DNA of 64,000 nt, taken from the IMG/VR virus record IMGVR_UViG_2737471833_000002; one strand, 5' to 3'. The DNA comes from a virus (Duplodnaviria; Heunggongvirae; Uroviricota; Caudoviricetes). Below, one piece after another: positions 12,366 to 63,981 of the stretch. Below the pieces are notes generated by a model that worked only from the letters and a program-made list of their open reading frames with translations, had not been told where the DNA came from and ran no database searches. Position 1 is the first letter of the stretch. Each line of letters opens with the position of its first letter. The position numbers were made by a program, and so were the translations under genes.

Positions 12366-12382
12366 ATTGCTCTAATTATTTT
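12366..12382 (+). promoter_or_regulatory. C1-repressor operator-like site
   Basis: ATTGCTCTAATTATTTT, 15/17 to the P1 C1 operator consensus; upstream of the c4/icd/ant region. Confidence 0.5.
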
Positions 12383-12509
12383 GTTTTTTTAGCTTCATAT
12401 GCTACATTAACTTTCTTGCGTGCTAATGCATTTTCGGTTTATCCTAAACAGGCATCTTAGTAAAACGGATGCCGGGATTGGAACCCCGGATAATGCAAAA
12501 GGCGACACA

Positions 12510-12530
12510 GACGCCAAAAGCGTCTTTTTT
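12510..12530 (+). terminator. rho-independent terminator-like hairpin
   Basis: GACGC-CAAAA-GCGTC followed by TTTTTT. Confidence 0.45.
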
Positions 12531-12539
12531 GTGTCATGC

Positions 12540-12700
12540 CATCGCACAGCCATACGTAGCACATAGCTCCGAGATCAATGGTAGTGCTGGCTGGGCTGCC
12601 GAAAGGCAGGCCGGTTCCCTTTTGCGCCGGTAGTTCCAACCCAGTTAGTGCTACCGCCATTGAGATTGGAACCTCACGCGGTAGCTCCTTAAATTAGCAA
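12540..12700 (+). ncRNA. c4-like antisense RNA region with complementary target repeats (approximate)
   Basis: Non-coding, GC-rich hairpins; CAATGGTAGTGCT at about 12577 is complementary to AGTGCTACCGCCATTG at about 12647; by synteny upstream of icd-ant. Confidence 0.25.
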
Positions 12701-12715
12701 AAGGAGGCTGCCATT

Positions 12716-12937
12716 GTGGCTACTACCCCTACCCAAACTCATCCTGAATTTATCTGGCGCTTTTACTCCTGCCAAAAACGTCACTATCACTTCGTTATTG
12801 CACCGACAGAAGATGAGGCCCGCTCTCAGCTTCCTGACGCTCCCTGTATTTTCTCTGCCCGTTTTTCAACCGACTTGCGCAATTCACTTAGTTACTGGAG
12901 CCTCCCCTTCTCTGCCGACGTTCAGGGGGGTTTATGA
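12716..12937 (+). CDS. icd: Icd-like small protein overlapping the ant start
   Basis: 73 aa, GTG start with strong RBS AAGGAGG; stop overlaps the ant ATG as in P1 icd-ant. Confidence 0.45.
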   Translation: MATTPTQTHPEFIWRFYSCQKRHYHFVIAPTEDEARSQLPDAPCIFSARFSTDLRNSLSYWSLPFSADVQGGL

Positions 12938-13971
12938 AAAAACCTCTCGTCACCCGTAATGAAATAGCCGAAGCGATCGCTTTGCATACAACCTGTATGC
13001 CGACACGGGAGATCCCCGGCGCAATTGCCAACTATTTCATGATAACCAGACGTTTTTATACCCGAACAGATAAGGCTGTGATCAACAAGCTACTGATAGC
13101 CGAGATCAGGGATTATTTGATTGAACAAGGACGTCTACGTTACGCAACAGTGGCAGCAGAAATGAGAAAGGAGGCACATAGAATGACCGGTAATAATTTA
13201 AATGTTGAAAAACCAGCACCTGTTGCTTCAGCTACGCCAGCACCAGCCGTGAATATCATCCCCAACACCGGAGACACAATCGACAGCCTGACACTGTTAA
13301 AGATGGTCAATGAAGCGCGTAAGTTATGTGGGGAACCAGAGGTTCGGAACAACAAATTCATCGAAAAAATACTCGATGAGCTTGATGGTGAGCACTACAC
13401 AAAAAGTGTAGTGGAAAAAATGAACAAAACATCAATGCTTGTCATAACCATGACTTTCAAACAAGCCCTGCGAGTCGCCGCGCGCGAGTCAAAAGCGGTC
13501 CGCCGTTCGCTGATCGACAAACTGGAAGAATTACAGCAGGCAAACTCCCCTACCCCATCGATCCCCCAAACATTACCAGAAGCTCTACGCCTGGCTGCCG
13601 AGTTGGCAGAACAGAAAATGCAGCTGGAACAACAGCTGGTGGCCGCTGCCCCTAAAGTCGATTTTGCCGACCGGGTATCAGCGGCTAATGGAATCCTGAT
13701 CGGGAACTTTGCAAAGGTCGTTGGACTTAAGCAAAACGCCCTTTTCTCATGGTTGCGCCAGAACGGCATTCTCATGGCTTTTGGTGCGCGCAAAAACGTA
13801 CCGCGCCAACAGTACATCAACGCCGGGTATTTCACGGTGAAAGAAGTGGTGCTGGATGATGAAAATGGCTACCAGATACGGCTGACGCCCCAATTAACGG
13901 GTAAAGGCCAGCAGTGGTTAACTCGCAAGCTACTTGATGCTGGTTTGTTAAAAACAGTAGCAATAGGTTAA
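12934..13971 (+). CDS. ant: antirepressor Ant (C-terminal KilAC-type domain)
   Basis: C-terminal ...LPEALRLAAELAEQK...APKVDFADRV...GKGQQWL... shared with the next gene; position after c4/icd. Confidence 0.7.
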   Translation: MKKPLVTRNEIAEAIALHTTCMPTREIPGAIANYFMITRRFYTRTDKAVINKLLIAEIRDYLIEQGRLRYATVAAEMRKEAHRMTGNNLNVEKPAPVASATPAPAVNIIPNTGDTIDSLTLLKMVNEARKLCGEPEVRNNKFIEKILDELDGEHYTKSVVEKMNKTSMLVITMTFKQALRVAARESKAVRRSLIDKLEELQQANSPTPSIPQTLPEALRLAAELAEQKMQLEQQLVAAAPKVDFADRVSAANGILIGNFAKVVGLKQNALFSWLRQNGILMAFGARKNVPRQQYINAGYFTVKEVVLDDENGYQIRLTPQLTGKGQQWLTRKLLDAGLLKTVAIG

Positions 13972-14048: not shown

Positions 14049-14065
14049 TTTGCTCTAATAAATTT
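14049..14065 (+). promoter_or_regulatory. C1-repressor operator-like site
   Basis: TTTGCTCTAATAAATTT (16/17) upstream of the kilA-repL pair. Confidence 0.5.
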
Positions 14066-14134: not shown

Positions 14135-14935
14135 ATGCAACAAACATTCAATGCGGATATGAATATATCAAACCTTCATCAAAATGTCGATCCTTCAACC
14201 ACTCTGCCTGTTATTTGTGGTGTTGAAATTACGACCGACCGCGCTGGTCGTTACAACCTTAATGCTCTACACAGAGCGAGCGGACTCGGTGCCCATAAAG
14301 CGCCAGCTCAATGGCTAAGAACGCTGTCAGCCAAACAGCTCATCGAAGAGCTTGAAAAAGAAACTATGCAGAATTGCATAGTTTCGTTCGAAGGCCGTGG
14401 CGGCGGTACGTTTGCCCATGAATTGCTCGCTGTGGAGTACGCAGGCTGGATTTCTCCCGCGTTTCGGCTGAAGGTAAACCAGACATTTATCGACTATCGA
14501 GCCGGAAGATTACAACCTGCTATTCCGCAGAGTCTCCCTGAAGCTCTCCGTTTGGCTGCCGACCTGGCAGAGCAAAAGCAACGGCTGGAGCAAAAAATGC
14601 TTATGGATGCGCCTAAAGTCGAATTCGCCGAACGCGTTGCTACCGCCAGCGGGGTTCTAATCGGCAACTATGCCAAAGTGCTCGGCCTGGGCCAAAACTA
14701 TCTCTTCACCTGGTTGCGTGATAACGGAATTCTGATCGCAACCGGTGAACGCAGGAACGTCCCCAAACAAGAATACATATCCCGTGGGTATTTCACCCTT
14801 AAAGAAACCGTGATCGATACAAGCAATGGAAGCAGGATTTCTTTCACGACTCGTATAACCGGCAAAGGTCAGCAGTGGCTGATGAAGCGATTGCTTGATG
14901 CTGGTGTGCTGGTACCTGTCGCGGCAACGCGCTAA
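14135..14935 (+). CDS. kilA: KilA-like protein (KilA-N-type N-terminus plus KilAC-type C-terminus)
   Basis: 266 aa; C-terminal half paralogous to Ant; preceded by a C1 operator-like site. Confidence 0.6.
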   Translation: MQQTFNADMNISNLHQNVDPSTTLPVICGVEITTDRAGRYNLNALHRASGLGAHKAPAQWLRTLSAKQLIEELEKETMQNCIVSFEGRGGGTFAHELLAVEYAGWISPAFRLKVNQTFIDYRAGRLQPAIPQSLPEALRLAADLAEQKQRLEQKMLMDAPKVEFAERVATASGVLIGNYAKVLGLGQNYLFTWLRDNGILIATGERRNVPKQEYISRGYFTLKETVIDTSNGSRISFTTRITGKGQQWLMKRLLDAGVLVPVAATR

Positions 14936-14964
14936 CAGACGTAGTAAGAACCACCAGCATTGTA

Positions 14965-15810
14965 ATGCTGGCTAAAGTCACTTTCCTGAGCTGTATAACG
15001 ATGAGCGATTTTACTTTTTCTGGCTATGAATTGGCCTGCTTTGTAACACACTCCGGTCTATCTCGTAGCGCCGGGCATATCCTGTCGCAATGTGCAAATC
15101 TAGCGGCAACAACCAGTGAATACTTCATTCACAAGCCTCACCGCCTGATCGCGGCAGAAACTGGTTATAGCCAATCAACCGTCGTTCGTGCATTCCGTGA
15201 AGCTGTAAACAAAGGAATTCTGTCTGTAGAGATTGTTATCGGCGATCACCATGAACGTCGCGCTAACCTGTACCGGTTTACACCATCCTTTTTGGCCTTC
15301 GCACAACAAGCCAAAAATGCGCTGATTGAAAGCAAATTAAAGATCTCTTCAGCGGCAACCAAGGTTAAAGCTGTTCTCGCTAAGACATTGGCTTTATTTA
15401 ATTTTTTATCCACACCCCCATGTCAAAATGATACCCCCTCCCCCTGTCAGGATGACGTGGCAATAAAGAATAAGAAGTCACAAGTTAAAAAAACAAAAAG
15501 ATCAGTTTCCGGCGGTGCCGGAACGACCAGACTCAAAAAATTGACTTCATGGATCGCTGAGGCAAAAGCAAAGGCTGACAATCTGCGGTTATCCAAAAAA
15601 CGCGCTCAAAAACATGAGTTCAAGCAGAAAGTAGAGGCGGCAGCGCGGAAATATGCTTACCTGAAGGACAAGCGTTCTCCTGATATTGGCGGGATATCAA
15701 ACTTCGATAATCTGCCACATTGCATGACGGTAAACGAAGCTCTTAATGCGGTTTTAGCCAAAAATAAAGATAACGAACAATGGGGTATACCGGCAGGATT
15801 CAGAGGGTAA
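14965..15810 (+). CDS. repL: RepL-like lytic replication protein
   Basis: 281 aa, HTH-like N-terminal region, Lys-rich C-terminus; position directly after kilA. Confidence 0.45.
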   Translation: MLAKVTFLSCITMSDFTFSGYELACFVTHSGLSRSAGHILSQCANLAATTSEYFIHKPHRLIAAETGYSQSTVVRAFREAVNKGILSVEIVIGDHHERRANLYRFTPSFLAFAQQAKNALIESKLKISSAATKVKAVLAKTLALFNFLSTPPCQNDTPSPCQDDVAIKNKKSQVKKTKRSVSGGAGTTRLKKLTSWIAEAKAKADNLRLSKKRAQKHEFKQKVEAAARKYAYLKDKRSPDIGGISNFDNLPHCMTVNEALNAVLAKNKDNEQWGIPAGFRG

Positions 15811-15813: not shown

Positions 15814-15830
15814 ATTGCTCTAATTATAAC
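15814..15830 (+). promoter_or_regulatory. weak C1-operator-like site
   Basis: ATTGCTCTAATTATAAC: core 11/11, overall 12/17; directly after the repL stop and upstream of the AT-rich two-gene cassette. Confidence 0.3.
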
Positions 15831-15978: not shown

Positions 15979-16683
15979 ATGTTGAACCGAAGAACATTTA
16001 ATGTATTCTGCGATGAATCCTGTCACCTACTAAATGATCATAATAAAGTCATGGTATTGGGTGCACTTTGGTGTCCTGGCTCTATCACAAAAAAAATTGC
16101 TAGAGACATCAAGGAATTAAAATTAAAACACAATCTAAAACCTGATTTCGAAATCAAGTGGACTAAAGTATCTGCGTCCAAAGTTGAATTTTACTTAGAT
16201 GTCGTAGATTACTTCTTCAGCAACCCAGCATTGCGCTTTAGAGGTGTTGTTGTTCCTGATAAAGAGCAACTGGACCATGCTCGATTCCATCAAGATCATA
16301 ATACTTTCTATTATAAGATGTTTTTTTATGTCTTAAAAAACATAATAGAAAGTAACAACACATACAATATCTACCTAGATATAAAAGATACTTTAGGTAT
16401 TGAAAAAATTGAGAAATTAAGAGGGGTTCTTCACAATGATCGCTATGATTACAATCATGAGTCGATAAACAGAATTCAACATATACGATCTCATGAAGTG
16501 CAACAATTGCAGCTAACGGATCTTTTCATTGGTGCGTTAGGCTACGTTCATCGAGGAATGAATAGCAACGCGGGAAAAATCCAAGTCATAAACAGGATAA
16601 AATCACATACAAACAGGGAGTTACTAAAAAGCACTCTTCCAACAGAAAGTAAATTTAATATTTTCGTGTGGGAGGCTCGCTGA
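15979..16683 (+). CDS. hypothetical protein, cassette gene A (N-terminal FCDES acidic motif)
   Basis: 234 aa, RBS AAGTGGAG; roughly one-third GC by eye versus about half in the backbone; the FNVFCDESCH motif reminds me of the DUF3800-type N-terminus (memory only). Confidence 0.55.
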   Translation: MLNRRTFNVFCDESCHLLNDHNKVMVLGALWCPGSITKKIARDIKELKLKHNLKPDFEIKWTKVSASKVEFYLDVVDYFFSNPALRFRGVVVPDKEQLDHARFHQDHNTFYYKMFFYVLKNIIESNNTYNIYLDIKDTLGIEKIEKLRGVLHNDRYDYNHESINRIQHIRSHEVQQLQLTDLFIGALGYVHRGMNSNAGKIQVINRIKSHTNRELLKSTLPTESKFNIFVWEAR

Positions 16684-17147
16684 TGCTTCAAATGCCAGAT
16701 TTATTGTACTTCAATGGAAGTTGGCAAGAGTATATAGACGATGTATATGATGTTGTCAGAGAAGACATTTTAATCTCTAATATAACGTTTAAGGGTCTCC
16801 CTGTTCGATTACGTTATTCACCGGAATATGATGGGAAAGAGTTCGGATTTTGGCATTTAGTATCAGAGGGAAAAAAAGAAGAAGAACGTATACCCGATCT
16901 TGAACGGTGCAAGCGAATTCGCTGGATCGCGCATATGATAAGGAATTATAACCATTGCGATATATCATGTTGGTCTGAAAGACGAGGACCAACTGAAGAG
17001 TGGGTAATCTGGAATGAGTGTGAAAACTACGTTGTTGTGCTATCCGCACGTAGAGACTATTGGCTTCTCAAAACAGCCTATGTTGTAACCTATGACAGTA
17101 AAATCAGAACACTCAAACAAAGCAGAAAAAGAGCACTTGGGACATAA
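16683..17147 (+). CDS. hypothetical protein, cassette gene B (translationally coupled to gene A)
   Basis: ATG at 16683 overlaps the stop of gene A (TGATG) with RBS GGGAGG 8 nt upstream; track ORF begins at GTG 16668; AT-rich. Confidence 0.55.
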   Translation: MLQMPDLLYFNGSWQEYIDDVYDVVREDILISNITFKGLPVRLRYSPEYDGKEFGFWHLVSEGKKEEERIPDLERCKRIRWIAHMIRNYNHCDISCWSERRGPTEEWVIWNECENYVVVLSARRDYWLLKTAYVVTYDSKIRTLKQSRKRALGT

Positions 17148-25453: not shown

Positions 25454-25621
25454 CGAAAGCCATCCTTTATGCTGTATTTTTGAATTTAATTAAAAATGCT
25501 GCATAAAATAATAATGTATGCACAGATGCTTGTACATAGCATTCTCTGCATGTTTGGTTCATTTTGCACGATTGAGAGTTACAAGGAGGGCACAAAAAAG
25601 CCCCGTTCAGGGGCATCAGTG

Positions 25622-26431
25622 TTATTTGCTAAGAGCAGCGAATAATCGTTCGAAATCGATAGTATCTATAGCACGCGTAAGCGCCGGAAGTTCAGCCTCA
25701 AAGTACCCGTGTCGATCGTAAAAGAAGGGACCGAAGAGCGAGGCATGTTGGATTCTACTTCGCCCCAGCCCGGACACACAGTTAAGCCCATTACCGGCTA
25801 AAAGGCTAAAAAACTTCTCTGGATTATCGTGGTAAAGCTGGGAATCAATGGTGGCGGTTAACTCTTCCATAGGGAAGCACACCCGCCTTGTCTCCCAGGA
25901 ATATTTAGTCCGAAGCATAAACATTGCTTTCAGCAATTCACATTGAGCGCGGATCGCGTCCGGTTCATAGCCAGATATGGAGACATAAGCCACGTCCCTC
26001 ATTCCTGCGTCATCTTTGAAAGTCACGATAGAAGTAACATCCAGCTCTTTTTCGAAAGAGCGGGCAGCATCTACTGGACGCTGAAGTAAATCATTCGACT
26101 TAATGCGCTCGAGAATCCCTCCCCACATATCATTTAGATATTCGATATGAGCCAAAACCTTATCAAGACACTCTCGTGTAAACCATTCAGTATGCCCGCC
26201 ACCAGCGCTTTTCTCCCACGGCGCATTCCAGGGGAAAAAGGTTGCGTGTAAAGCCCGCTCAAGATTAACTATTGCCAAACGCGTACCACGATAGACCCGT
26301 GAAAGCGCAAAATCGGGACTCACTTGTAGCCCTTTAAACCGTGCCAATGGACCACATGAAATGCCGATTTTAAAAGTATCTCCATTCTCCGGCACCAGAA
26401 CGTAGAGGTAGTGTTGTTTCTCTTCTTGCAT
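25622..26431 (-). CDS. T5orf172-domain (GIY-YIG-like) protein
   Basis: N-terminal YLYVLVPENGDTFKIGIS...LERALHATF...GGGHTEWF pattern; sits between the incA-like iterons and parA. Confidence 0.6.
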   Translation of the reverse strand: MQEEKQHYLYVLVPENGDTFKIGISCGPLARFKGLQVSPDFALSRVYRGTRLAIVNLERALHATFFPWNAPWEKSAGGGHTEWFTRECLDKVLAHIEYLNDMWGGILERIKSNDLLQRPVDAARSFEKELDVTSIVTFKDDAGMRDVAYVSISGYEPDAIRAQCELLKAMFMLRTKYSWETRRVCFPMEELTATIDSQLYHDNPEKFFSLLAGNGLNCVSGLGRSRIQHASLFGPFFYDRHGYFEAELPALTRAIDTIDFERLFAALSK

Positions 26432-26465
26432 ATCAATACCACTGCTTGATGAGAACCGCGCAAAT

Positions 26466-26723
26466 GTTGACTATGCGCGAAAGTTAATGTGAATAGTTGA
26501 CTATGCGCGATGTGACTACAGTCAAAAGTTGACTGTAGTCGATTTAACTCCACCAAAGATCGACTATGTAAGATATTGTCGGGAGAAACGTTGACTATAC
26601 GCGATGAAATGACCCTAAAAGCCATCTCAATAGCGACTTGCAGAATATTGACGCCAGCAAAAATCCACCAGCGTCAACGAATGTCGCCTATAGTCAACTT
26701 CTCGCTATCGCATATAGTCAATA
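26466..26723. repeat. incA-like iteron array downstream of repA
   Basis: Seven or more copies of the GTTGACTATGCGCGA-type iteron in both orientations, including a palindromic pair at about 26511-26542. Confidence 0.6.
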
Positions 26724-27608
26724 TTATGGATTGCGCTTATGGATCTGGAAGCCGATTTTCCTGCCGTTTTTTATTTCTGAAAATTTAAGATATTCAATAG
26801 CTTCCAAATCTTTCATGGCTTTTCTGATAACGCTATTTTGCACGCTAACGGATGATTTGAGATTAAGCCTTGCTCTAAGGCGCTCAATGCTGACAGGTGC
26901 CGGGTTGGCGGGTAGAGCCTCAAAGAATGTATACAGTACCTTGGCCGTCTCTTTGCGCCCGAGCTTATCCAGCATCTTCAGCTTCAGGATTCGCTTATAG
27001 TCAACATAGTAAAGTTCAGATAGCTGTTTCTGCGGCTGGATCTCGATAACATCAAGCTCGGTATTCAGGCTGCTATATGCCAACAAGTTGACGTTAATGT
27101 TATTGAGATGACCTTTTGCCGCCGGGAAGCGGAATTTGACAACTGTCTGCTGAATGCGTGTCAGAGAGTCATCAATACTTTTACGGAACGCCTTTGAAAG
27201 GCGCTTACGTGGATAGCCGCATCGATCGGCAAACTCGGAGAATGGCAGGGTGATTATGCCGTCATCATCAGGTGCGTAGTCAAACAACGCGGAGGTTATG
27301 CCCACCCACACCTTAAAATCAGTATCCATATCCAGGCGTGGGCCATGAATTTCAATTCCCTCATAGCCTTCCTGCTCAACAATTTTAAGGCTTGATAGTT
27401 CTTCGGTTGCGTTCGTTGTGTTTGTAGTAACTGACGATCCGCGACGTAGTGCCACATTGGTAGATTTTAAGGTTGGCACAAACACACCTAAGCGCAACAA
27501 AGCGATAGGTTGTATAGTGCTGTTGTTATTGGGCTTCAGGCTGTGGATTTCTCCTGTATTTCCTGCAACTTCTTCAACGCTAAGGAAGCCTTTACTTTCT
27601 TCCGGCAT
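26724..27608 (-). CDS. repA: plasmid replication initiator RepA (P1 RepA family, diverged)
   Basis: 294 aa; TIQPIALLRLGVFVP and GPRLDMDTDFKVWVG resemble P1 RepA; flanked by iterons on both sides. Confidence 0.85.
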   Translation of the reverse strand: MPEESKGFLSVEEVAGNTGEIHSLKPNNNSTIQPIALLRLGVFVPTLKSTNVALRRGSSVTTNTTNATEELSSLKIVEQEGYEGIEIHGPRLDMDTDFKVWVGITSALFDYAPDDDGIITLPFSEFADRCGYPRKRLSKAFRKSIDDSLTRIQQTVVKFRFPAAKGHLNNINVNLLAYSSLNTELDVIEIQPQKQLSELYYVDYKRILKLKMLDKLGRKETAKVLYTFFEALPANPAPVSIERLRARLNLKSSVSVQNSVIRKAMKDLEAIEYLKFSEIKNGRKIGFQIHKRNP

Positions 27609-27686
27609 CGTGGTTTCTCCATGTGTGGCGCGGCCTGGCGTTAATTTAGATGACTGTTATCAACAGCTGTGAATATTCAGGCTCTA

Positions 27687-27789
27687 AAATCGCGTACAGT
27701 CAACGTTTCTGTCGCGTATAGTCAACAATAAATCGCGTGCAGTCAACATAAAATCGCACACAGTCAACATAAAATCGCGTATAGTCAAT
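27687..27789. repeat. incC-like iterons upstream of repA (five direct repeats at 21-22 bp spacing)
   Basis: AATCGCGTACAGTCAAC and four variants starting at about 27690, 27712, 27733, 27754, 27775. Confidence 0.65.
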
Positions 27790-27905
27790 GTTGATCCCGT
27801 TTCAGGCCATGAACGGCGCGGCTTACAGCGATCCGGGATCTTCTTTGGATCTTCCTAGGTTCTCTTTGGGATCTGTTTATTGGATCTATGCTGTGGATAA
27901 GTTGA
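27790..27905. other. oriR-like origin core: GATC cluster plus DnaA box
   Basis: Five or six GATC sites within about 90 bp and TGTGGATAA (DnaA box) at about 27892. Confidence 0.5.
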
Positions 27906-30130: not shown

Positions 30131-30147
30131 ATTGCCCTAATAAATAT
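30131..30147 (+). promoter_or_regulatory. C1-repressor operator-like site
   Basis: ATTGCCCTAATAAATAT (15/17) upstream of the 30219/rdgC/dmt operon. Confidence 0.45.
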
Positions 30148-30503: not shown

Positions 30504-31401
30504 GCACTGGAAAAACATTACTATTTATAAACTTTCTCGTGAGGCGGATCTGACCGACTTAGAAGATAAAAAGAAAATGATCCTTTTCACGCCATGCGGT
30601 AGTCAGGATATGGCCAAGTTCGGTTTTGTATCTCCATTTGGTGATAATTCCGAAGTTATCGCTATGCATGGAAATGGTTTTATCCTTGTTGAAGCAAAGC
30701 GCGAAACAAAAATTCTTCCCCCGCCGGTTATCCAGCGAGCTATTCAAGAAAAAATTGAAAAACTTGAGCAAGAACAAGCGCGTAAACTGAAGAAAACAGA
30801 GAAGGACTCCCTGAAAGACGAAGTTCTGCATTCTCTTCTGCCACGGGCTTTTTCAAAGTTTTCTGTTATCCAGGCGATCTACGACGGTTCAACTAAACGT
30901 ATCTATATCAATGCCAGCGCGCGGCAGGCAGAGGATATGCTCGCGCTTATGCGTAAATCTCTGGGTTCTCTTCCTGTTGTGCCCCTAAGTGTTGAAAATC
31001 AAATTGAGTTAACGCTGACCGACTGGGTGCGTGATGGTAGTGCTCCGCAGGGATTTCAAATGGGGGATGCGGCAGAACTTAAGGCAGTGCTTGAGGATGG
31101 CGGTATTGCCCGAGTGAAAAAGCAGGACTTGGGAAGTGATGAAATATCCACACACCTGGAAGCTGGCAAGCTCGTCACTAAGTTGGCACTCGACTGGCAG
31201 AACCGCATTAAATTTACACTGGACCATAACTTCAGCCTTACCAGCGTCAAATTTGCGGATGAATTGCTTGAGCAGAACGCTGATATTGATAGTGAAGATG
31301 TTGCGCAGCGACTGGACGCAGATTTCTTCCTGTTGACCAGTGAAATTTCGTGCCTGGTTGATGCTCTGGTAAATGCCCTTGGCGGAGAGGCTAAGCAGTG
31401 A
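30496..31401 (+). CDS. rdgC: RdgC-like recombination-associated protein
   Basis: 302 aa from the internal ATG; near-collinear with E. coli RdgC ([48 protein letters not shown]). Confidence 0.85.
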
Positions 31402-34685: not shown

Positions 34686-34692
34686 TAAATTT
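34676..34692 (+). promoter_or_regulatory. C1-repressor operator (perfect consensus match)
   Basis: ATTGCTCTAATAAATTT 17/17, overlapping the dmt stop codon; upstream of the tRNA/tciA/ban region. Confidence 0.55.
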
Positions 34693-34866
34693 ATTAGTGT
34701 AATATCACCTCAATGAATCGTGATTTATAGAGCGATTTAGCTGTTAGCCGCGACAGGCGCGGCGGTAAGCATGGCTGGGCCTAGTCCTCCCAGACAAACC
34801 ACCGAGTTGCCAGGTTGACCATGCGCCTAAGTGGCAACGCCGAAGTGCGTTACGAGCTTCCAGTTT

Positions 34867-35357: not shown

Positions 35358-35433
35358 GATGGTGTAGCTCAGCGGTTAGAGCGGTTGACTGTTAATCAAC
35401 GGGTCGATGGTTCAAATCCATCCACCATCGCCA
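35358..35433 (+). tRNA. tRNA-Asn (anticodon GUU)
   Basis: Cloverleaf: acceptor GATGGTG/CACCATC, D-arm GCTC-AGCGGTTA-GAGC, anticodon loop CTGTTAA, T-loop TTCAAAT, encoded CCA. Confidence 0.85.
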
Positions 35434-52177: not shown

Positions 52178-52734
52178 CAATTGACTATCAGGCACTGCGA
52201 GATGCGGCAGTTGCAGTAGAAACAGAACCTATGCATCAAAATTTTGTGGCGTTTCGTATGGCGTTCACGCCATCGGTGGCACTGGCACTACTGGATGAAC
52301 GGGAAAGAAACCAGCAATACATCAAACGCCGTGATCAGGAGAACGAGGATATTGCGCTAACGGTAGGGAAGCTGCGCGTTGAGCTTGAAGCAGCAAAATC
52401 AAAACTCAACGAGCAGCGTGAATATTACGAGGGAGTAATCGCGGATGGAAGTAAGCGCATTGCAGAACTGGAAGCACGGGAAATAAAACCAGCCAAAGGT
52501 GAGGTTCTTGTCGTTGTTTCTGGTTTTACTGGTTGCGGAAAAAGCGCCATTGCCGGGGAAATAGAAATCGCGATGAAGGCTATTGGTGTACCGGTTCAGT
52601 GGACTAATGGCGATGCGGAAAAGCGCATGACAGGAGCTGACTGGCTGACAGCGATTGAGATGTACAAACCAACAGTGCGCATCATGGAAGTTAATGTGCC
52701 ACGCGCCGCTGGCATTCGCATCAAAGGAGAGTGA
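52165..52734 (+). CDS. hypothetical protein (189 aa)
   Basis: ORF in operon with overlapping junctions. Confidence 0.4.
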   Translation: MARMTIDYQALRDAAVAVETEPMHQNFVAFRMAFTPSVALALLDERERNQQYIKRRDQENEDIALTVGKLRVELEAAKSKLNEQREYYEGVIADGSKRIAELEAREIKPAKGEVLVVVSGFTGCGKSAIAGEIEIAMKAIGVPVQWTNGDAEKRMTGADWLTAIEMYKPTVRIMEVNVPRAAGIRIKGE

Positions 52735-52735
52735 T

Positions 52736-53251
52736 ATGGCGTTAACACACCGCGAACTCTGTCAGATTGCGTACAAGTTCCTTAAGCGCAACGGGTTCAA
52801 GGTTTGTTTTCATGACCGCTTTATAGCTGTAACCAGTACCGGAGAACAGCCAGATGCTATGGGATTCAGAAATTCAGCATCATGCCTGATAGAGGCGAAG
52901 TGTTCTCGTGCTGACTTGTTGGCAGATAGAAAAAAGCGTTTCCGTAAAAATCCCTCACTTGGCATGGGCGACTGGCGATTCTTTATTAGTGAGCCGGGAA
53001 TTATTTCAGTTGAGGATTTACCTCCCGGCTGGGGATTACTTCACGTTGTTAACGGAAGAGTACGGAAAGTACATGGATGGCCCAAGGGGAATTGCTGTTG
53101 GGGTAACCCTGAAGATAAACCTTTTATTGGGAATAAGCAGGTTGAATGCGATTACATGTTATCTGCATTAAGGCGCATGGAGTTGAGAGGGCACCTTAAT
53201 GAAATATATGACGGTGTAATTGTTAATAAGAAAGAAGGAAACGCGGCATGA
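52736..53251 (+). CDS. putative PD-(D/E)XK-fold nuclease-like protein
   Basis: ATG 52736 with RBS AAAGGAGAG (track ORF from 52655); ...PDAMGF...LIEAKCSRADL... reminiscent of a D...EAK motif. Confidence 0.35.
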   Translation: MALTHRELCQIAYKFLKRNGFKVCFHDRFIAVTSTGEQPDAMGFRNSASCLIEAKCSRADLLADRKKRFRKNPSLGMGDWRFFISEPGIISVEDLPPGWGLLHVVNGRVRKVHGWPKGNCCWGNPEDKPFIGNKQVECDYMLSALRRMELRGHLNEIYDGVIVNKKEGNAA

Positions 53252-53964
53252 TCACTATTACCAAAGAGCGACTACTTACAATCAAGCAGTGGCGCGAAAC
53301 ATACGGACCGGGTAGCAACGTTGTACTGCCAGCAGAAGAAGCAGAAGAACTGGCACGAATTGCGCTGGCATCGCTGGAAGCAGATCCAGTTGCTTATATT
53401 TTCAAACATCCGGCCGGGAAATTATTCTGGTCTTTAACGGATGAAAGCAATAAAGAGCAAGCGGACGTTATTCCTGTTTATGCTGCCGCGCCTGCGTCGG
53501 TTGTGCCGGATAATGCATCAGAGCCTCTTGCTTATGCTTACAAAGAGCTTACGCCTGAGATTATGCGCAACCATTTAGCTGTATTCGAGCGATATGGAAT
53601 AGCCCCAAACGATAGCTCTACCACAATTCAGGCACTGCGAATCGCGCTGGATGGCATAGAGCGGAGCGACGCCATGCTTCATGGTGCCGAACCTGTAAGC
53701 CAAACTTACAAGTTGAACCAGCTATCGGGCAACTCTCCGGCAACTCCGGATGGTTGGATAAGCTGTAGTGAGCGAATGCCGAATACCAAAACAGCCGTTC
53801 TTGTTGCCGTGGAGTTTGACAGGAAAGGTGACTGGCGAATGAAATGGGCTACTTACATCCCCGGGCATCCTGACGCTAATGATGGGTGGATAATTCCTGG
53901 TGCGTCGTGGAAACCGTCACACTGGATGCCGCTACCAGAACCGCCGCAGGAGGTGAATCAATGA
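53248..53964 (+). CDS. DUF551-like protein
   Basis: C-terminal ...DGWISCSERMPN...WKPSHWMPLPEPP pattern typical of DUF551 proteins. Confidence 0.4.
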   Translation: MITITKERLLTIKQWRETYGPGSNVVLPAEEAEELARIALASLEADPVAYIFKHPAGKLFWSLTDESNKEQADVIPVYAAAPASVVPDNASEPLAYAYKELTPEIMRNHLAVFERYGIAPNDSSTTIQALRIALDGIERSDAMLHGAEPVSQTYKLNQLSGNSPATPDGWISCSERMPNTKTAVLVAVEFDRKGDWRMKWATYIPGHPDANDGWIIPGASWKPSHWMPLPEPPQEVNQ

Positions 53965-54028
53965 GCTGGCCTGAAGCATTCACCACGGTAGGAATTGTGA
54001 TGGCGGCAGCACTGGGTTTGTATTCAAT

Positions 54029-54280
54029 TTGTCGCTGGTGGTAACGATGGGAAAAATAACTTTTGTAGTCGAATTTGAGGATGACAAAGAGCCACCTGTT
54101 AGCGCCAATCTTGATGTTGCTGGTGGCAGGCTGGTTTCGGTTCTATTTGGTGATTACCGCGACGACTTCTTTCAGCCTGAAGAAGTTGATGTAGTGCGAG
54201 AAGCATTAAACGAGCTAAGTGTTGATAACGATGATGCTCATGCGGAAATCATCAAAAAAATGGAACTGCTAACTCACTAA
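54029..54280 (+). CDS. hypothetical acidic protein (83 aa)
   Basis: ORF with ATG start. Confidence 0.35.
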   Translation: MSLVVTMGKITFVVEFEDDKEPPVSANLDVAGGRLVSVLFGDYRDDFFQPEEVDVVREALNELSVDNDDAHAEIIKKMELLTH

Positions 54281-54458
54281 ATTATCAATTATGGTGCTAT
54301 CACCTACGACACCGAGAGAAAATTTATAATGTCAAAAGTAAATGTTTTGATTTTTTCAGCAATTGTTGGCTTTGGTTTTACTGCCGGAGTGCAGATTTAT
54401 ATTGCGTGGGAAAAAATCATCAACTACGCATGGAGTTGTTTTATTAAGTGAGGTAAGT

Positions 54459-54752
54459 ATGTGGAGAGGTAATAGTCATGGCAAAAGCCAGATGATACTT
54501 ACCGAATATAAGCTAGACCACAAAGCCAATAAATCACGCTCAGTATATTTGCTCCGGCACAATAGCCGCGTAAGAAATACCGTGCTGGAACAAAATCTGA
54601 CAGTTGAAATGGATAATTACGGTGGATTCAAGCCAACAATTTCGCTTGATGATTTTCCTCGTGGTTTAAGCGAAAGAGAAGCAATGCTGAAATTAGCAGA
54701 ATGGCTACAAAGATTAAGCATTGCTATTGAAGATAACTGGTCTGAACCTTAA
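54459..54752 (+). CDS. hypothetical protein (97 aa)
   Basis: ATG 54459 with RBS GTGAGGT; track ORF from 54363. Confidence 0.35.
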   Translation: MWRGNSHGKSQMILTEYKLDHKANKSRSVYLLRHNSRVRNTVLEQNLTVEMDNYGGFKPTISLDDFPRGLSEREAMLKLAEWLQRLSIAIEDNWSEP

Positions 54753-54758
54753 ATTTAT

Positions 54759-55133
54759 ATGATGACACTAAAACATTTTCTTGACCGCCCATTATGGGCG
54801 GCAGCCGCAGGCTATGACTTTAATTATATGGATTGCATGTCTTATACTGCCAATGCATACGACCATTCGTTCAGCCTGCTGTTTAATTCTTTAAGAATAT
54901 TGCCGGAAACAGAAGTTGGAGAGCTTCATTTATGGATATTGGGCTTTATCGCGGCTGTCGTTGGTATTGCTGTATGGCCTTTTATTTTCTGGCTGGTGGC
55001 TGTTGTAGTGTGGTTTAAGTGCAAGACATACCGGAGAAAGTATTTCTTAGGTGATGGAATGACCGATATTGCCAAAATGAACATTGAAAAATGGACTAAG
55101 GAATGTGAAAAGAAATGGCGCAAAAAGAAATGA
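54759..55133 (+). CDS. small membrane protein
   Basis: Hydrophobic segment ILGFIAAVVGIAVWPFIFWLVAVVVWF. Confidence 0.4.
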   Translation: MMTLKHFLDRPLWAAAAGYDFNYMDCMSYTANAYDHSFSLLFNSLRILPETEVGELHLWILGFIAAVVGIAVWPFIFWLVAVVVWFKCKTYRRKYFLGDGMTDIAKMNIEKWTKECEKKWRKKK

Positions 55134-55789
55134 CTACTCTAACGACAGCATACTTACAGCAATTGGTATTTTTTGCAGGCGAGGCTACTTGTCATCCTGA
55201 CGCAAACTATTTATTGGAATTTGAGAGGTTAGCGTCACCCGGTATCGTTCTGGAACTGGCCCAACAGGTGCTGGCCTTGAGACAAAAAGAGCAACATGAA
55301 AGTAATACGTGTAGATTGAATTTTGAGCAGTGGCTGGAACAGCAACGCGGAAAAATCGATGTGGACTGTGGTTGTGTGTCCACTGAAACATTCATGCACT
55401 GGCTGCGGGTAGCTTACGAGGCTGGCAACTATCCGGATATTCCGGATAGTTCGGTGCCAGCGCCAGGAAAGGGCGTCACCGGTGAACGTATCCGCATTAA
55501 GCCGCATGTTTATCGCGAACTGGTTAACCGTCTCCACGATACAGCGATCAAGTGTGCTGGCACCCAGCAATTACGAGAAAGAATTAGCCGTGTTTTGGGC
55601 GACGTTATTACGCCATATCATCATAAACAAGCCGAGAAAAGCGGTCTGGAAAGGTGTCATCTTGAGGCAGCATTAAACATTAAGCCGGGGCATACGCTTG
55701 GCATTATTGATGCACTGTTGGTTCATAAGATGGCCAGGGCTTTATTGTCGTTGGTGGACGCTGGTGATACAAGCGAGGGTGAAGTATGA
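55115..55789 (+). CDS. hypothetical protein (224 aa)
   Basis: ORF in operon. Confidence 0.4.
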   Translation: MAQKEMTTLTTAYLQQLVFFAGEATCHPDANYLLEFERLASPGIVLELAQQVLALRQKEQHESNTCRLNFEQWLEQQRGKIDVDCGCVSTETFMHWLRVAYEAGNYPDIPDSSVPAPGKGVTGERIRIKPHVYRELVNRLHDTAIKCAGTQQLRERISRVLGDVITPYHHKQAEKSGLERCHLEAALNIKPGHTLGIIDALLVHKMARALLSLVDAGDTSEGEV

Positions 55790-56148
55790 GAGTTGCAGAT
55801 CACATCAAACACCTTGAAAGAATTATCGAAAACGGTGAACTCTTAAGAGATCAGATGAGACGCACGGCAGAAGCCAGGGAGGCGATAATCCGCAGTCAGG
55901 CTGGTAAATTAAAGCAATTGTCAGAGATTAACACGCTATACAAGAACAGACGTAACCGGGCGGTGATGCGGCTTCAGAAAGCACGTAATGAAATTAAATT
56001 GGTGGAGGCAAAACTGAAAAAACAGATCCAGCGTTACGATCAGCAAGATGCTTTTTATGCCGCCATCAAGGCGGCTGCTAATGAAATAGGCATCTGGAAG
56101 TTGCTGGTGGAGAAAGCAAAGACGAAGTTAAATGCCAACGAAAGCTGA
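55786..56148 (+). CDS. coiled-coil protein (120 aa), last gene of the plus-strand accessory operon
   Basis: Overlapping start; helical, Lys/Arg/Glu-rich. Confidence 0.4.
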   Translation: MRVADHIKHLERIIENGELLRDQMRRTAEAREAIIRSQAGKLKQLSEINTLYKNRRNRAVMRLQKARNEIKLVEAKLKKQIQRYDQQDAFYAAIKAAANEIGIWKLLVEKAKTKLNANES

Positions 56149-57223
56149 ACTACAGGTGCCCACCAGCACATACAGAAAATGATTGTTTCCACATCAAGGA
56201 GATTTTAATGTTTCACTGAAACATTAAGTAAGCCAGTGCATAATTCCATTTTTTACTGACCTTAAAAGCAAAATCAAAACGATGATGAGGATAATAGCCA
56301 GAATCTGGCTAATAATAGGCGCATCTAAAAATGCACTCAGGAACTGAAAAAAAGCGTTCATTCAGGTGGTTCCTTGTCAAATGTAAAGGTGCACTTGCTC
56401 ACGTTGACGTAGAAACCCAACCCCTATATAGTTGGATTCGGTGAATGAAAGTCGTTAACGTGAGCTTACGGCACATGTTTTCGGAAAAACATCAGGGAAC
56501 GGCTAATTCCTTGATGCGGGTGGGGTCTGTAATGCAGACCCTATCTATTAACGTCATGATTGCATCTCAAATTTTCTCCTTATCTTCAATTAATCTACAT
56601 TCATTTCATCTGTTAGCCACCACAATATGTAGAAAATGGCCCTCTTGCAAGTGCATAACTTTGTGGATAACTCAGGAAGGAAAAAGTGGCTTTCGCGCAC
56701 CTTCGGTCAGACAAGGTGTCCGGGAAAGTCAACGCAAAGAAAAAAATTGTTAAAAATAACGTTTGTTGGAATTGTATATTTTTATCCCCTTCAATGGTTA
56801 GCATTCTATTAACATCTTTTTTTAGAGACAGAAAAACATATCGTAACAACATATATACAGTGTTAAGAGGCGAGTATTATCCTGCGGTGGGAATTCTGGG
56901 CGCTGTTAGATTCGACTTTCTCAGCAGGATTACATCGTCAACTTGCGACGTTGCCGTATGACTTTCGTGTGATAGGTGACAATGATGCGGCTAGTGAGTT
57001 ACTTGTGAAGTTTTTCGGAAAAGGTTTTGTGGCCTCGGATCTTGATGAGCTACAGCAACATGAAGTGTCTAATTTGATTTTTAGCTATAGCCAATAAGCC
57101 TCCCTCCTCCATCAAGGCCACAATTTGTGACCTTAAACAATTTGTTTTCTGCTTTTTCTTATTTGAGAAAATAACGTTGTTGACAGCTAATAGGCTCATT
57201 GTTGTTATACATGCCTGTATAGA

Positions 57224-57580
57224 TTATGACCGTAAATTATTAGCGGATTTTAAGCCATATTCACCGTTGTAGAAATTACTCATGTTCCATTCATTAGGAA
57301 GTTCTTTTCTGTCCAATGTATAGTGGCGCACGATATAACGATCTTCATCTTCTTCGATGGACAGGCGGACATAGCCAATGTGAATCACCGATACGGGCGG
57401 TGTTCGTATTGCATAGATGTCGCGGAGATATACCGGCAGCTCGACAAATGCATCAGGTGCATCTGTGATGCTCGTTTTTTCACAGTATTCATATAACGCA
57501 TCGTTGATATCGTTAAGAGATTCATGATCGTATATTTCCAGGTAATTACCGCGATCGCGATGGTACTCGATTTTAGCCAT
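57224..57580 (-). CDS. hypothetical protein (118 aa)
   Basis: Abuts the upstream gene; divergent from humD. Confidence 0.4.
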   Translation of the reverse strand: MAKIEYHRDRGNYLEIYDHESLNDINDALYEYCEKTSITDAPDAFVELPVYLRDIYAIRTPPVSVIHIGYVRLSIEEDEDRYIVRHYTLDRKELPNEWNMSNFYNGEYGLKSANNLRS

Positions 57581-58165
57581 TCAAAATCCTCTGTTATCGT
57601 TTTGCATTTCTCTAATCCGGTTCAGAACTACTTCGTGCTGGACTTGGATAGCGGCTTTTTCGTTTTCAAGCCGGGCAATAGACATCTCTAATTCTTTGCT
57701 GTACCAGGCGAGCTGGGCCAGGTTCATCCGGTTGTGGTCGAGAGTTGGAGACACTTCGACGCGATCCCTTTCTTCCTGCTTTAATGAGAAGAGATTCATC
57801 TCATCCCTTGAGGAAAATTCAGCAACAATTTCTTGTTGATGATCCGGTCGCTGCGGCATCCTCGCCAGTATAAATGGCGGTTCTTTTGAAAACATGAATG
57901 ACGGTTTAGACCGTGTTTTGACCCATCTAGCTTGCTGTCTTTCGGCAAGTTCACAGGCTTCATCATAGTTATCTACAAAACCAAGCACGGATGGACGGTC
58001 CCACGCGCCACCATTCAGACAATAAACAAGAATTTTCCCGTCAGGTTCTGTAACTCCATAGGGATGGTCCCACCAGGCGTCCAGCTGGGCTTTGGAGCGT
58101 TTCTCGTTAGGAGTGCAGTCAAAATTTTTGGGCAATGCAGGATCGAGAGGAATGCGGGCAGGCAT
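57581..58165 (-). CDS. hypothetical protein (194 aa), divergent from humD across the LexA box
   Basis: ATG with RBS AAGGAA. Confidence 0.45.
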   Translation of the reverse strand: MPARIPLDPALPKNFDCTPNEKRSKAQLDAWWDHPYGVTEPDGKILVYCLNGGAWDRPSVLGFVDNYDEACELAERQQARWVKTRSKPSFMFSKEPPFILARMPQRPDHQQEIVAEFSSRDEMNLFSLKQEERDRVEVSPTLDHNRMNLAQLAWYSKELEMSIARLENEKAAIQVQHEVVLNRIREMQNDNRGF

Positions 58166-60658: not shown

Positions 60659-60675
60659 ATTGCTCTAATGTATTG
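60659..60675 (+). promoter_or_regulatory. C1-operator-like site
   Basis: ATTGCTCTAATGTATTG (14/17), 1 nt after the upstream stop, before the lpa-like gene. Confidence 0.45.
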
Positions 60676-60745
60676 CTATTTCTTTAATCGAGTGTATTAT
60701 ATTCCACGTTGATTAGTTGACATGGGCTAATCAGTAGGTGACAGG

Positions 60746-61198
60746 ATGTTACTTAACTGGCAGGGACGCCACTTCATGGAAATAAATCACTCACGAATAA
60801 CATCGTACGAGATTGCGGATTACATGATCCGCACTAAATCTCTTCTATCAGCGAAAGAACTCGCAGCAATTCTTGAAAAGGAATACCCACATCTGGATGT
60901 CGATAAGCGCGATGTTTATCTGCGCTTAAAGGCTATCGCTGTGTCTAAGTATTCGTCTGTTTTGATTGATGACAGTACACGCCCACGTAGATTTCAGATC
61001 CACTCTCTGAATCCTGAATTCTTTCGCCGTAGCCGCGCTCCGCGCCGGTTTGATGAAAAACTCCAGAACGAACTCTATATGACGCAGGACGAAAAGGAAC
61101 GCCGGGAGCACCAGCCTTGGGTAATGGCGCGTCAACTTTTCAATAAGGTGGCCCGTCAGCACCGTCATTACGGTAATGCCACATCCGCACGTATCTGA
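60746..61198 (+). CDS. lpa: late promoter activator-like protein (Lpa-like, by synteny)
   Basis: 150 aa, directly upstream of pacA and behind a C1-operator-like site, as for P1 lpa; no motif verified. Confidence 0.4.
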   Translation: MLLNWQGRHFMEINHSRITSYEIADYMIRTKSLLSAKELAAILEKEYPHLDVDKRDVYLRLKAIAVSKYSSVLIDDSTRPRRFQIHSLNPEFFRRSRAPRRFDEKLQNELYMTQDEKERREHQPWVMARQLFNKVARQHRHYGNATSARI

Positions 61199-61283
61199 TT
61201 GATTGCTTGCCCGTTCCGGGCCTTTTGACATGTGACTTTCGTTACCCTCGCGTCAAAAAGAGTTTTTACGAAAGGAAGCATAA

Positions 61284-62477
61284 GTGACCTGGGACGATCA
61301 CAAGAAGAATTTTGCTCGCCTGGCGCGAGATGGTGGTTACACCATCGCACAGTATGCCGCCGAGTTTAATCTTAACCCTAATACTGCACGTCGTTATCTC
61401 CGTGCCTTCAAAGAAGACACCAGGACAGCGGACAGCCGCAAGCCAAATAAGCCAGTCAGGAAGCCACTAAAAAGCATGATCATTGATCACTCTAATGATC
61501 AACATGCAGGTGATCACATTGCGGCTGAAATAGCGGAAAAACAAAGGGTTAATGCCGTTGTCAGTGCCGCAGTCGAGAATGCGAAGCGCCAAAATAAGCG
61601 CATAAATGATCGTTCTGATGATCATGACGTGATCACCCGCGCCCACCGGACCTTACGTGATCGCCTGGAACGCGACACCCTGGATGATGATGGTGAACGC
61701 TTTGAATTCGAAGCTGGCGATTACCTGATAGATAACGTTGAAGCGCGGAAGGCCGCGCGCGCTATGTTGCGTCGGTCCGGGGCCGATGTTCTGGAAACCA
61801 CTCTTCTTGAAAAGTCTCTTTCTCATCTCCTTATGCTGGAGAACGCCAGGGATACGTGTATTCGCCTGGTGCAGGAAATGCGCGATCAGCAAAAAGACGA
61901 TGATGAAGGTACTCCGCCTGAATACCGTATCGCGAGCATGCTAAACAGCTGTTCCGCGCAGATAAGCAGTCTGATCAACACCATTTACAGCATCCGGAAT
62001 AACTATCGAAAAGAAAGCCGGGAGGCGGAAAAGCACGCTTTGTCTATGGGGCAAGCTGGCATTGTTAAGCTGGCATACGAACGAAAGCGTGAAAATAACT
62101 GGTCAGTGCTGGAAGCGGCTGAATTCATCGAGGCGCATGGAGGAAAAGTGCCGCCCCTGATGCTGGAGCAAATCAAAGCCGATCTGCGTGCTCCTAAGAC
62201 CAATACCGATGATGAGGAAAGGCAAACTGCCGTCGGTGGCCCTTCTCTTGAAGATCTGGACAAAGTTGCGCGAGAACGGGCCGCCAACCGCCGCGCCGAT
62301 GCCGCATTGTGGATTGAGCAACGTAGGGAAGAAATCGCCGATATCGTTGATACAGGCGGTTATGGAGATGTTGATACTGAAGGTGTATCAAACGACCCAT
62401 GGCTGGAACAAGACCTGGACGAAGACGAGGAGGAAGACGAAGAAGTTACCCGCAAGCTATACGGGGATGATGATTAA
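61284..62477 (+). CDS. pacA: DNA packaging protein PacA (terminase small-subunit-like)
   Basis: 397 aa; N-terminal HTH-like segment; contains the pac hexamer clusters; acidic C-terminus; upstream of pacB. Confidence 0.75.
61477..61635. other. pac site: four plus three TGATC(A/G) hexamers flanking the cleavage region
   Basis: TGATCA x4 at about 61477-61516 and TGATCG/TGATCA/TGATCA at about 61607-61635, each carrying a Dam GATC. Confidence 0.65.
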
Positions 62478-63961
62478 TGGCCAGAAGTTGCGTAACGGAT
62501 CCACGTTGGCGCGAGCTGGTGGCGCTATATCGTTATGACTGGATTGCGGCCGCTGATGTTTTGTTCGGCAAAACACCTACCTGGCAGCAGGATCTGATTA
62601 TTGAGTCTGTGCAGGAACAGGGTAGCAAGACATCTGTTTCGTCTGGTCACGGTACCGGGAAATCAGACATGACTTCTATCATGATCATGTTGTTCATAAT
62701 CATGTATCCCGGTGCCCGCGCCATTATCGTTGCGAACAAAATTCAGCAGGTAATGACCGGTATATTCAAGTACATCAAGATAAACTGGGCTACTGCCACC
62801 AGCCGTTTTCCATGGCTTGCTGATTATTTTGTTCTGACAGAAACCGCTTTCTATGAGGTTACTGGTAAAGGTGTATGGACTGTAGTACCGAAGGGCTTTC
62901 GTCTGGGAAGTGAAGAAGCTCTCGCCGGTGAACACGCAGATCATCTTCTGTATATTATCGATGAAGCCTCCGGTGTCAGTGATAGAGCTTTCGGTATCAT
63001 CACCGGTGCTCTTACCGGACAGGATAACCGCATCTTATTACTGTCACAGCCTACACGCCCAAGCGGCTATTTCTACGATACACACCATAAACTGGCCAAG
63101 CGTCCTGGTAACCCTGATGGCGTTTATACGGCGATCACGCTTAACAGTGAGGAATCACCGTTGGTAACGCCAGCATTTATCAAAATGAAGCTGGCGGAGT
63201 ACGGCGGGCGTGATAACCCTATGTACATGATTAAGGTACGCGGCCTATTCCCTAAATCACAGGATGGCTTCCTTCTTGGACGTGATGAGGTTGAACGTGC
63301 AACGCGGCGGAAAGTCAAGATTGCAAAAGGATGGGGCTGGCTTGCATGTGTGGACGTTGCTGGTGGTACGGGACGGGATAAGTCCGTTATCAATATCATG
63401 ATGGTGTCCGGCCAGCGAAATAAACGCCGTGTAATCAACTATCGAATGCTGGAATACACAGACGTTACAGAAACGCAGCTTGCCGCCAAAATTTTCGCAG
63501 AATGTAATCCTGAGCGATTCCCAAATATCACCATAGCGATAGACGGCGATGGCCTGGGTAAAGCAACGGCGGATCTGATGTACGAGTATTATGGTATTAC
63601 CGTACAGCGTATACGCTGGGGTAAAAAGATGCATAGCCGTGAAGATAAGAGCCTGTACTTTGATAAACGTGCTTATGCCAACGTTCAAGCCGCAGAGGCC
63701 GTAAAATCTGGTCGTATGAGACTGGATAAGGGTAATGAAACTATTGAGGAAGCGTCGAAAATCCCTGTAGGGATTAACTCCGCAGGTCAATGGAAGGTGA
63801 TGAGTAAGGAGGATATGAAGAAAAAACTCAACCTGCACTCACCAGACCATTGGGATACATATTGTTTCGCTATGCTGGCGGATTATGTTCCCCAGGACGA
63901 AGTGCTTAGCGTCGAAGACGAAGCGCAGGTTGATGAAGCTCTGGCATGGCTTAATGAATGA
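62477..63961 (+). CDS. pacB: terminase large subunit PacB
   Basis: 494 aa; P-loop-like [11 protein letters not shown] and acidic ATPase/nuclease motifs; start overlaps the pacA stop. Confidence 0.85.
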
Positions 63962-63964
63962 ACG

Positions 63965-63981
63965 TTTGCTCTAATGAATTG
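63965..63981 (+). promoter_or_regulatory. C1-operator-like site
   Basis: TTTGCTCTAATGAATTG (14/17) directly after the pacB stop. Confidence 0.4.

Follow-up and report, generated by a model that had tools for sequence, protein, structure and literature searches.

The 64,000-nucleotide stretch of viral DNA analyzed here (IMG/VR record IMGVR_UViG_2737471833_000002; hereafter the window) belongs to a P1-family phage-plasmid, and thirteen sites in it are very probably operators for the C1 repressor of P1. Twelve are orthologues of named P1 operators, and the thirteenth, at 63965, is an Op51-type operator that most probably accompanies a second antirepressor cassette. A megablast search identified the window as a Punavirus (P1-family phage-plasmid), and local alignment placed window positions 1-63963 collinear with P1 36466-93207 at 93-99% identity (95-99% over the greater part), broken by replaced or inserted segments at 10165-12742, 25553-27814, 31632-32651, 36407-36907, 50762-55413, and 56701-57630. 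The stop codon of pacB is the exact end of P1 identity. The C1 operator network is an already characterized P1 circuit, and the window's copy of it is not new. It helps annotation in that it marks the element as a P1-type phage-plasmid whose lysogeny switch is intact.

The enrichment of the motif is far beyond what base composition would produce. Allowing up to three mismatches to the 17-base-pair (bp) consensus ATTGCTCTAATAAATTT, we found 11 matches, against an expectation of 0.43 from dinucleotide shuffles; not one of 100 such shuffles had as many as 11. The 10-bp core TTGCTCTAAT occurs 9 times in the window, against 0.19 expected. A weight matrix built from the 17 annotated C1 operators in positions 36400-94800 of the P1 record AF234172 returned 13 matches at 17 bits or more, with scores spanning 17.4-27.7 bits, whereas 150 shuffles averaged 0.13 such matches and never gave more than 2. 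When the threshold was lowered to 12 bits, there were 15 matches against 1.87 expected; the two additional candidates, 28659(+) and 38868(-) at about 12 bits each, were rejected as operators, being at chance level. The thirteen sites are listed below under names that rest on the GenBank annotation of AF234172 ("protein_bind: phage repressor C1" features), each with the genes it would be expected to control.

12366-12382, plus strand: Op51/Oc4 equivalent; ATTGCTCTAATTATTTT, 24.0 bits; at the head of the primary immI operon.
14049-14065, plus strand: Op53/OrepL; covers the -10 of PkilA (P53); kilA-repL (14135-15810).
15814-15830, plus strand: Op55/Orlf; 17.4 bits; upstream of rlfA-rlfB (15979-17147).
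30131-30147, plus strand: Op68/Odmt; ATTGCCCTAATAAATAT, with a T-to-C change at core position 6 (core TTGCCCTAAT), 20.6 bits versus 26.1 in P1; abuts the -35 of Pdmt; uhr-hrdC(rdgC)-dmt.
34676-34692, plus strand, and 34687-34703, minus strand: Op72a/Obana and Op72b/Obanb, a bivalent operator overlapping P1ban and P2ban; transfer RNA (tRNA)/ban operon.
44747-44763, minus strand: Op82/O26; core variant TTGCACTAAT; between the divergent genes 26 and pmgL, overlapping predicted pmgL promoters.
45654-45670, minus strand: Op83/Oppp; CATGCACTAATTAATTT, 18.5 bits; just downstream of PpmgN.
48371-48387, plus strand, and 48420-48436, minus strand: Op86a/OpmgRa and Op86b/OpmgRb, bracketing PpmgR; pmgR-pmgS.
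50511-50527, plus strand: Op88/OpmgT; overlaps the P2pmgT -35; heads the operon at 50706-56148.
60659-60675, plus strand: Op94/Olpa; 18.9 bits; overlaps the -35 of Plpa; lpa (60746-61198), the late-promoter activator.
63965-63981, plus strand: extra operator, not in P1; TTTGCTCTAATGAATTG, 18.8 bits, three mismatches to consensus.

An earlier note, made from the letters of the window, had proposed eleven such sites. All eleven are present at the coordinates and strands it gave, and the frequency of the motif exceeds chance by either search, but its count fell short of the thirteen found here: Op72b and Op83 had been missed. Its lower limit of 12 matching bases in 17 holds for Op55, which was found through its core and the matrix and not through the three-mismatch search, and the core it described as invariant in most sites is so in nine of the eleven, the exceptions being 30131 and 44747(-). 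The motif that it named as the P1 C1 operator does match the published consensus (PMC8546580), and 10 of its 11 sites coincide base for base with annotated P1 operators. The operons that it named (c4-icd-ant, kilA-repL, rdgC-dmt, tRNA/ban, and lpa) are correct. Its statement that several sites overlap the preceding stop codon holds only loosely: Op72a alone contains a stop codon (the dmt TAA), and the first base of Op88 is the last base of the pap stop, while five others (15814, 45654, 48371, 60659, and 63965) begin 1-6 nucleotides past a stop. Specifically, Op55 starts 3 nucleotides after repL, Op83 starts 6 nucleotides after pmgM, and the last site starts 3 nucleotides after pacB (stop codon 63959-63961).

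Alignment to AF234172 placed 12 of the 13 sites at positions orthologous to annotated P1 operators; only 63965 is without a P1 counterpart. At ten of the twelve, the flanks are 91-100% identical to P1 (98% around Op53, whose own sequence is the same as in P1, and 100% around Op86a and Op86b), and P1's annotated promoters, including PkilA, P1/P2ban, PpmgR, P1/P2pmgT, and Plpa, therefore lie in near-identical sequence. On this basis, overlap with or abutment to a promoter was transferred from the P1 annotation for Op53, Op68, Op72a and Op72b, Op82, Op83, Op86a and Op86b, Op88, and Op94. The upstream flank of Op68 is diverged or indel-shifted relative to P1. The flanks of Op51 are 32% identical to P1 in an ungapped comparison, and the operator core, the T-run, and promoter-like spacing are kept: the 3' end of the operator overlaps an inferred -35 (TTGTTT), with an inferred -10 (TACATT) 16 nucleotides downstream. 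In the segments that do not derive from P1, a matrix scan of the window found no operator-grade site except at the heads of immI cassettes, which indicates that new cargo sits within existing C1-controlled operons.

The circuit that these sites would form is that of P1, where a 17-bp asymmetric consensus and some 22 dispersed operators have been described (PMC8546580) and where repL, lpa, and ant are under C1 control (PMC8546580; PMC8201110). C1 would bind each asymmetric site and, because most sites overlap or abut a sigma-70 -35 or -10, the bound repressor would occlude promoters, so that early and lytic operons scattered over the plasmid prophage stay silent. The set silenced in this way would include c4-icd-ant; kilA-repL and rlf; hrdC-dmt; the tRNAs and the ban helicase; several pmg, ppp, and accessory operons; and lpa. 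In P1, the corepressor Lxc strengthens C1 binding, and Coi and Ant1/2 inactivate C1 (notes to AF234172; PMC8546580). Inactivation by Coi or Ant1/2 would be expected to release all of these operons jointly, after which the product of lpa could activate late promoters. For this element, binding and repression at individual sites are inferred from sequence.

The operon headed by Op51, the primary immI (12366-13971), has the following parts, all on the plus strand.

12452-12530, plus strand: isrK-like leader RNA (Rfam RF01394, 58.5 bits against a gathering score of 50).
12574-12661, plus strand: C4 antisense RNA (Rfam RF01695, 75.4 bits against a gathering score of 45).
12716-12937, plus strand: icd, an open reading frame that overlaps the start of ant.
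12934-13971, plus strand: ant, with a KilAC domain (Pfam ANT, E = 5.6e-31).

A terminator scan found a terminator-like hairpin at 12509-12525 that ends the isrK-like leader, and the C4 loop GTTCCAA is complementary to two TTGGAAC targets within its own transcript. The operon thus combines what defines an immI: a C1 operator at its head, a C4 RNA with its own targets, and an icd that overlaps a KilAC-type ant. From this arrangement, icd and ant are predicted to be antirepressor genes under the control of Op51 and C4. The encoded Ant is 93% identical to P1 Ant1, and the sequence type of the operon differs from that of P1 and P7. Such isrK-type primary operons are a minority, making up 7-9 of the 74 KilA-anchored loci that we typed in IMG/VR.

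The thirteenth site most probably heads a second operon of the same design. As we read it, 63965 is an Op51-type operator that arrived with a second C4-regulated icd-ant cassette of about 1.7 kb inserted between pacB and c1, and it would control that cassette. Its 3' end, like that of Op51, overlaps an inferred -35 (TTGTGT); of the proposed cassette, the window includes just the operator and this hexamer. An extra operator after pacB is present in RCS47, pFLI21_1, pEC13-3, and pMTY10828_p0111, as well as in 41 of the 77 PacB-anchored IMG/VR contigs that could be classified. In these relatives, the operator is followed by a -10-like hexamer (TACATT), an isrK-like RNA, a C4 RNA, icd, ant (351-372 amino acids), and then c1, which lies on the other strand at a distance of 1666-1727 bp from the stop codon of pacB. 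The cassette was complete in all 30 contigs with a locatable downstream c1; icd was intact in all 30 and ant in 28. The C4 RNA scored at least 75 bits in each of the four relatives checked with Rfam, which span three specificity types, and the isrK-like leader exceeded the Rfam gathering score in both immI cassettes. Among the 41 junction copies, the core TTGCTCTAAT is intact in 40 and the -10 TACATT is invariant, amid variation in the linker to pacB (ATA, ACA, ACG, AAA, or AAAAA) and in the promoter spacer.

Comparison of the two cassettes locates the edge of the inserted unit. The window's immI and the inserted cassette share 81% homology that starts at base 2 of the operator, and their upstream flanks are unrelated; the conserved part of this mobile immI cassette thus begins, on its left, with the operator. 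The last 401 nucleotides of the window are 100% identical to pFLI21_1. This plasmid was rejected as a full-length stand-in, being a rearranged mosaic that is not collinear with the window, and pEC13-3 and pMTY10828_p0111 were used instead. Both are complete, collinear plasmids, and in both, an identical junction operator is followed by the cassette and then by c1. The C1 proteins of relatives with a 63965-type junction share 281-282 of 283 residues with P1 C1 and would therefore be expected to have an unchanged operator specificity.

Several observations weigh against our interpretation of the network and of its last site. Op55 overlaps no annotated promoter. A strict sigma-70 scan found no promoter adjoining 12366 or the junction operator, and the promoters proposed there, which match consensus at only 7 of 12 positions (as does P1 P51a), were therefore placed by positional homology to P51a alone. 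At the ten sites with conserved flanks, conservation is uninformative, because the flanks are as conserved as the operators; footprinting with moderately diverged relatives yielded nothing further, since the phage collection gave only relatives at 97% identity or more, along with unrelated lambdoid matches to ppp. Polymorphism around Op94 in the 77 PacB-anchored contigs placed rare variants in 6 of the 17 columns within the operator, compared with 30 of 184 columns beyond it. The operator was nonetheless identical in 69 of the 77, and all common variants lay outside it, a result that is only suggestive of operator constraint and not decisive. The C at core position 6 of Op68 is absent from all 17 P1 operators examined, which have T or A there, and the change may weaken C1 binding and control of the hrdC-dmt operon. 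This variant occurred in 2 of 71 IMG/VR contigs with this operator-promoter (C versus T, 2 versus 68), in a scan that required an exact operator match and so gives the frequency of C versus T at one position with no information on constraint; it is linked to one upstream haplotype. Finally, c1 itself lies outside the window, and only 19 nucleotides follow the last site, so that the second cassette in this element, like any continuation past base 64000, is inferred from relatives.

Some of these points would fit an alternative in which 63965, the Op68 variant, or both are nonfunctional relics or chance matches with no useful C1 binding. The junction site has three mismatches to consensus, and its 18.8 bits fall below the best score obtained within single shuffles of the window (21.7 bits); the C in the core of Op68 is without precedent. 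Yet the position of 63965 is homologous to that of Op51 in the paralogous cassette, and its core has stayed intact in 40 of 41 independent copies while neighboring bases varied. Furthermore, Op94, a proven operator according to the P1 record, scores similarly and has the same ...ATTG 3' ending, and the change in Op68 is confined to a core position at which P1 operators themselves have either T or A. We therefore consider this alternative unlikely for either site.

A second alternative is that 63965 serves the adjacent c1 as an autoregulatory or terminal operator. The earlier note had leaned this way in proposing, from the site after pacB, that the repressor gene lies just beyond the window. 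That c1 lies downstream is borne out by the relatives, where it is found on the opposite strand, and P1 has a whole group of operators in its c1 region (Op99a-e). However, c1 begins some 1.6-1.7 kb further on, and the site would be owed to the inserted cassette and not to c1. Where c1 directly follows pacB, as in P1, phiW39, SJ46, and 36 IMG/VR contigs, the two are separated by a spacer of 24-25 bp that holds no operator. In addition, 63965 faces the same way as a plus-strand promoter, at the spacing seen for Op51, and C4, icd, and ant come after that promoter; the 3' end of c1 is some 1.6-1.7 kb away from the site and Pc1 some 2.6 kb. A role in c1 regulation is thus very improbable. Least credible of all is the proposal that the motif is a shared promoter element or dispersed mobile repeat: many copies do abut a TTGnnT -35-like hexamer and a T-run, but the sites occur in both orientations and in varied placements (over the -35, over the -10, or downstream of the start), no extended repeat surrounds them, and the curated P1 record marks the same sequences as "phage repressor C1" sites, several of them cross-referenced to earlier deposited operator sequences.

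Returning to the second cassette as an inserted, operator-headed immI, we regard it as a minor and partly described variant of a known design. For RCS47, "two short orfs and ant inserted between pacB and c1" had been noted, with no mention of the operator or of C4 (PMC6906374), and in the literature searched we found no fuller account than this passing remark. The importance of the extra operator is modest; it suggests that accessory antirepressor modules can join the C1 regulon by bringing their own operator.

The antisense specificities of the cassettes add to this picture. Second cassettes fall into three antisense types, in each of which the C4 loop and both of its targets co-vary, plus one hybrid, and all three types stand behind the same operator head.

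Type A: target 1 TTGAGAC; C4 loop GTCTCAA; target 2 TTGAGAC; 18 loci.
Type B: target 1 TTGGAAC; C4 loop GTTCCAA; target 2 TTGGAAC; 3 loci.
Type C: target 1 TTGGCCT; C4 loop AGGCCAA; target 2 TTGGTCT (one G-U pair); 19 loci.

Among the primary modules, which were retrieved through a KilA anchor, 64 of the 74 typed loci are of the P1/P7 type, and the rest are mostly isrK-type B, like the window. In 17 of the 18 elements typed at both positions, the C4 specificities of the two copies differ. For example, in pEC13-3 and pMTY10828_p0111 the primary is of the window's type (type B), and the second cassette, which follows a junction operator identical to the window's, is of type C. The same operator head precedes type A in pFLI21_1 and type C in pEC13-3; the window's own second type is not decidable.

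Given these patterns, it is possible that P1-family phage-plasmids carry plug-in antirepressor cassettes with a C1 operator as the left boundary, a second one being present in about half of the window-type lineage and at least three co-varying specificities being in circulation. If both copies are functional, one C1 would gate two independently antisense-locked antirepressors, amounting to a combinatorial code of immunity and anti-immunity. We hold this reading and its negation to be about equally probable; such a code is not formally described in the literature searched. P1-like plasmids are common carriers of resistance genes in Escherichia coli. That they often hold two antisense-controlled antirepressors of unlike specificity could shape their coexistence or mutual induction.

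Two further observations concern exchange between the copies. Among L035/L170 (IMGVR_UViG_2778261639_000014) and L188, there are hybrid immI cassettes, in which target 1 is of one specificity and C4 and target 2 are of another, and a contig in which pacB is joined via a cassette straight to kilA. The hybrids and the pacB-cassette-kilA junction suggest that the two immI copies have recombined, both with each other and internally.

Set against known systems, the network is closest to the C1 operators of P1 and P7. It shares with them the asymmetric 17-bp consensus, twelve orthologous positions with identical or near-identical sequence, the predicted promoter overlaps, the operons that would be regulated, and the bivalent arrangement at ban. 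It differs in that Op51 sits in non-P1 flanks, Op68 carries the T6C change, Op88 drives a P7/SJ46-type block, and an extra operator follows pacB, which P1, P7, phiW39, and SJ46 lack. The immI of P1 and P7 (Op51 - P51a/b - c4 - icd - ant1/2) has the same plan as both the primary operon of the window and the inserted cassette of its relatives: an operator over an inferred -35, a C4 RNA (RF01695), two targets, a 73-amino-acid icd overlapping the start of ant, and a KilAC-type Ant. Unlike in P1 and P7, however, the leader and C4 region is of another sequence type with an isrK-like element, there are three recognition specificities that are not matched to P1's, and a second copy stands between pacB and c1, encoding an Ant that is about 56% identical to P1 Ant1 with its central part replaced.

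The leader also recalls a more distant system. RF01394 (isrK) corresponds to the IsrK/antirepressor locus of the Salmonella prophage Gifsy-1, and as at that locus, an isrK-like leader precedes an antirepressor gene in both immI cassettes. In the present cassettes, this leader forms part of a P1-type immI with a C1 operator at its head. The CI operators of lambda (OL and OR) likewise place repressor sites over promoters to silence the lytic genes of a prophage; they are symmetric and clustered at two loci, whereas P1 sites are asymmetric, mostly single, and spread genome-wide.

Beyond the operators themselves, several segments of the window depart from P1. Next to Op51 and divergent from it, the sim operon of P1 is replaced by an AT-rich three-gene cassette (10261-12219, minus strand; 36% guanine plus cytosine) that is common to about 27 plasmids at about 96% identity. 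Its products of 355 (with a weak SH3_3 match), 158, and 116 amino acids belong to PHROG families of unknown function, and a PADLOC search returned no match in the cassette. The replicon at 25553-27814 is also unlike that of P1. It encodes a Rep3-type initiator of 294 amino acids (26724-27608, minus strand) that is flanked by iterons particular to it, TCGCgTAtAGTCAAC, of which five tandem copies lie at 27690-27791 and more at 26461-27007, and an extra gene with a T5orf172 domain lies at 25622-26431. The difference in replicon probably confers another incompatibility specificity than that of P1.

Within operons headed by C1 operators, the Dmt protein (31398-34685) has 1095 amino acids compared with 754 in P1. 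The additional stretch of about 341 amino acids (insert at about 31632-32651) is a canonical intein that starts with Cys, ends in ...VVHN, and contains Hint and LAGLIDADG homing-endonuclease domains. Its insertion point is precisely the catalytic Cys in the PCQ motif of the C5-methyltransferase (GTP / C...HN / CQAFS), and the intein is unmentioned in the literature searched. In the operon behind Op88 (50706-56148), P1 pmgT-V gives way to a mosaic of P7/SJ46 type made up of ea-like genes (Ea22-like, DUF551, and others). Some stretches of this mosaic match Stx-converting lambdoid phages at 97% identity, a sign that P1-like and lambdoid phages have exchanged genes within an operon under C1 control. 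Finally, the ban operon, which would be controlled by Op72, includes three tRNA genes (35358-35430, 35436-35508, and 37152-37224) at the positions of P1 tRNA-Asn, tRNA-Thr, and tRNA-Ile.

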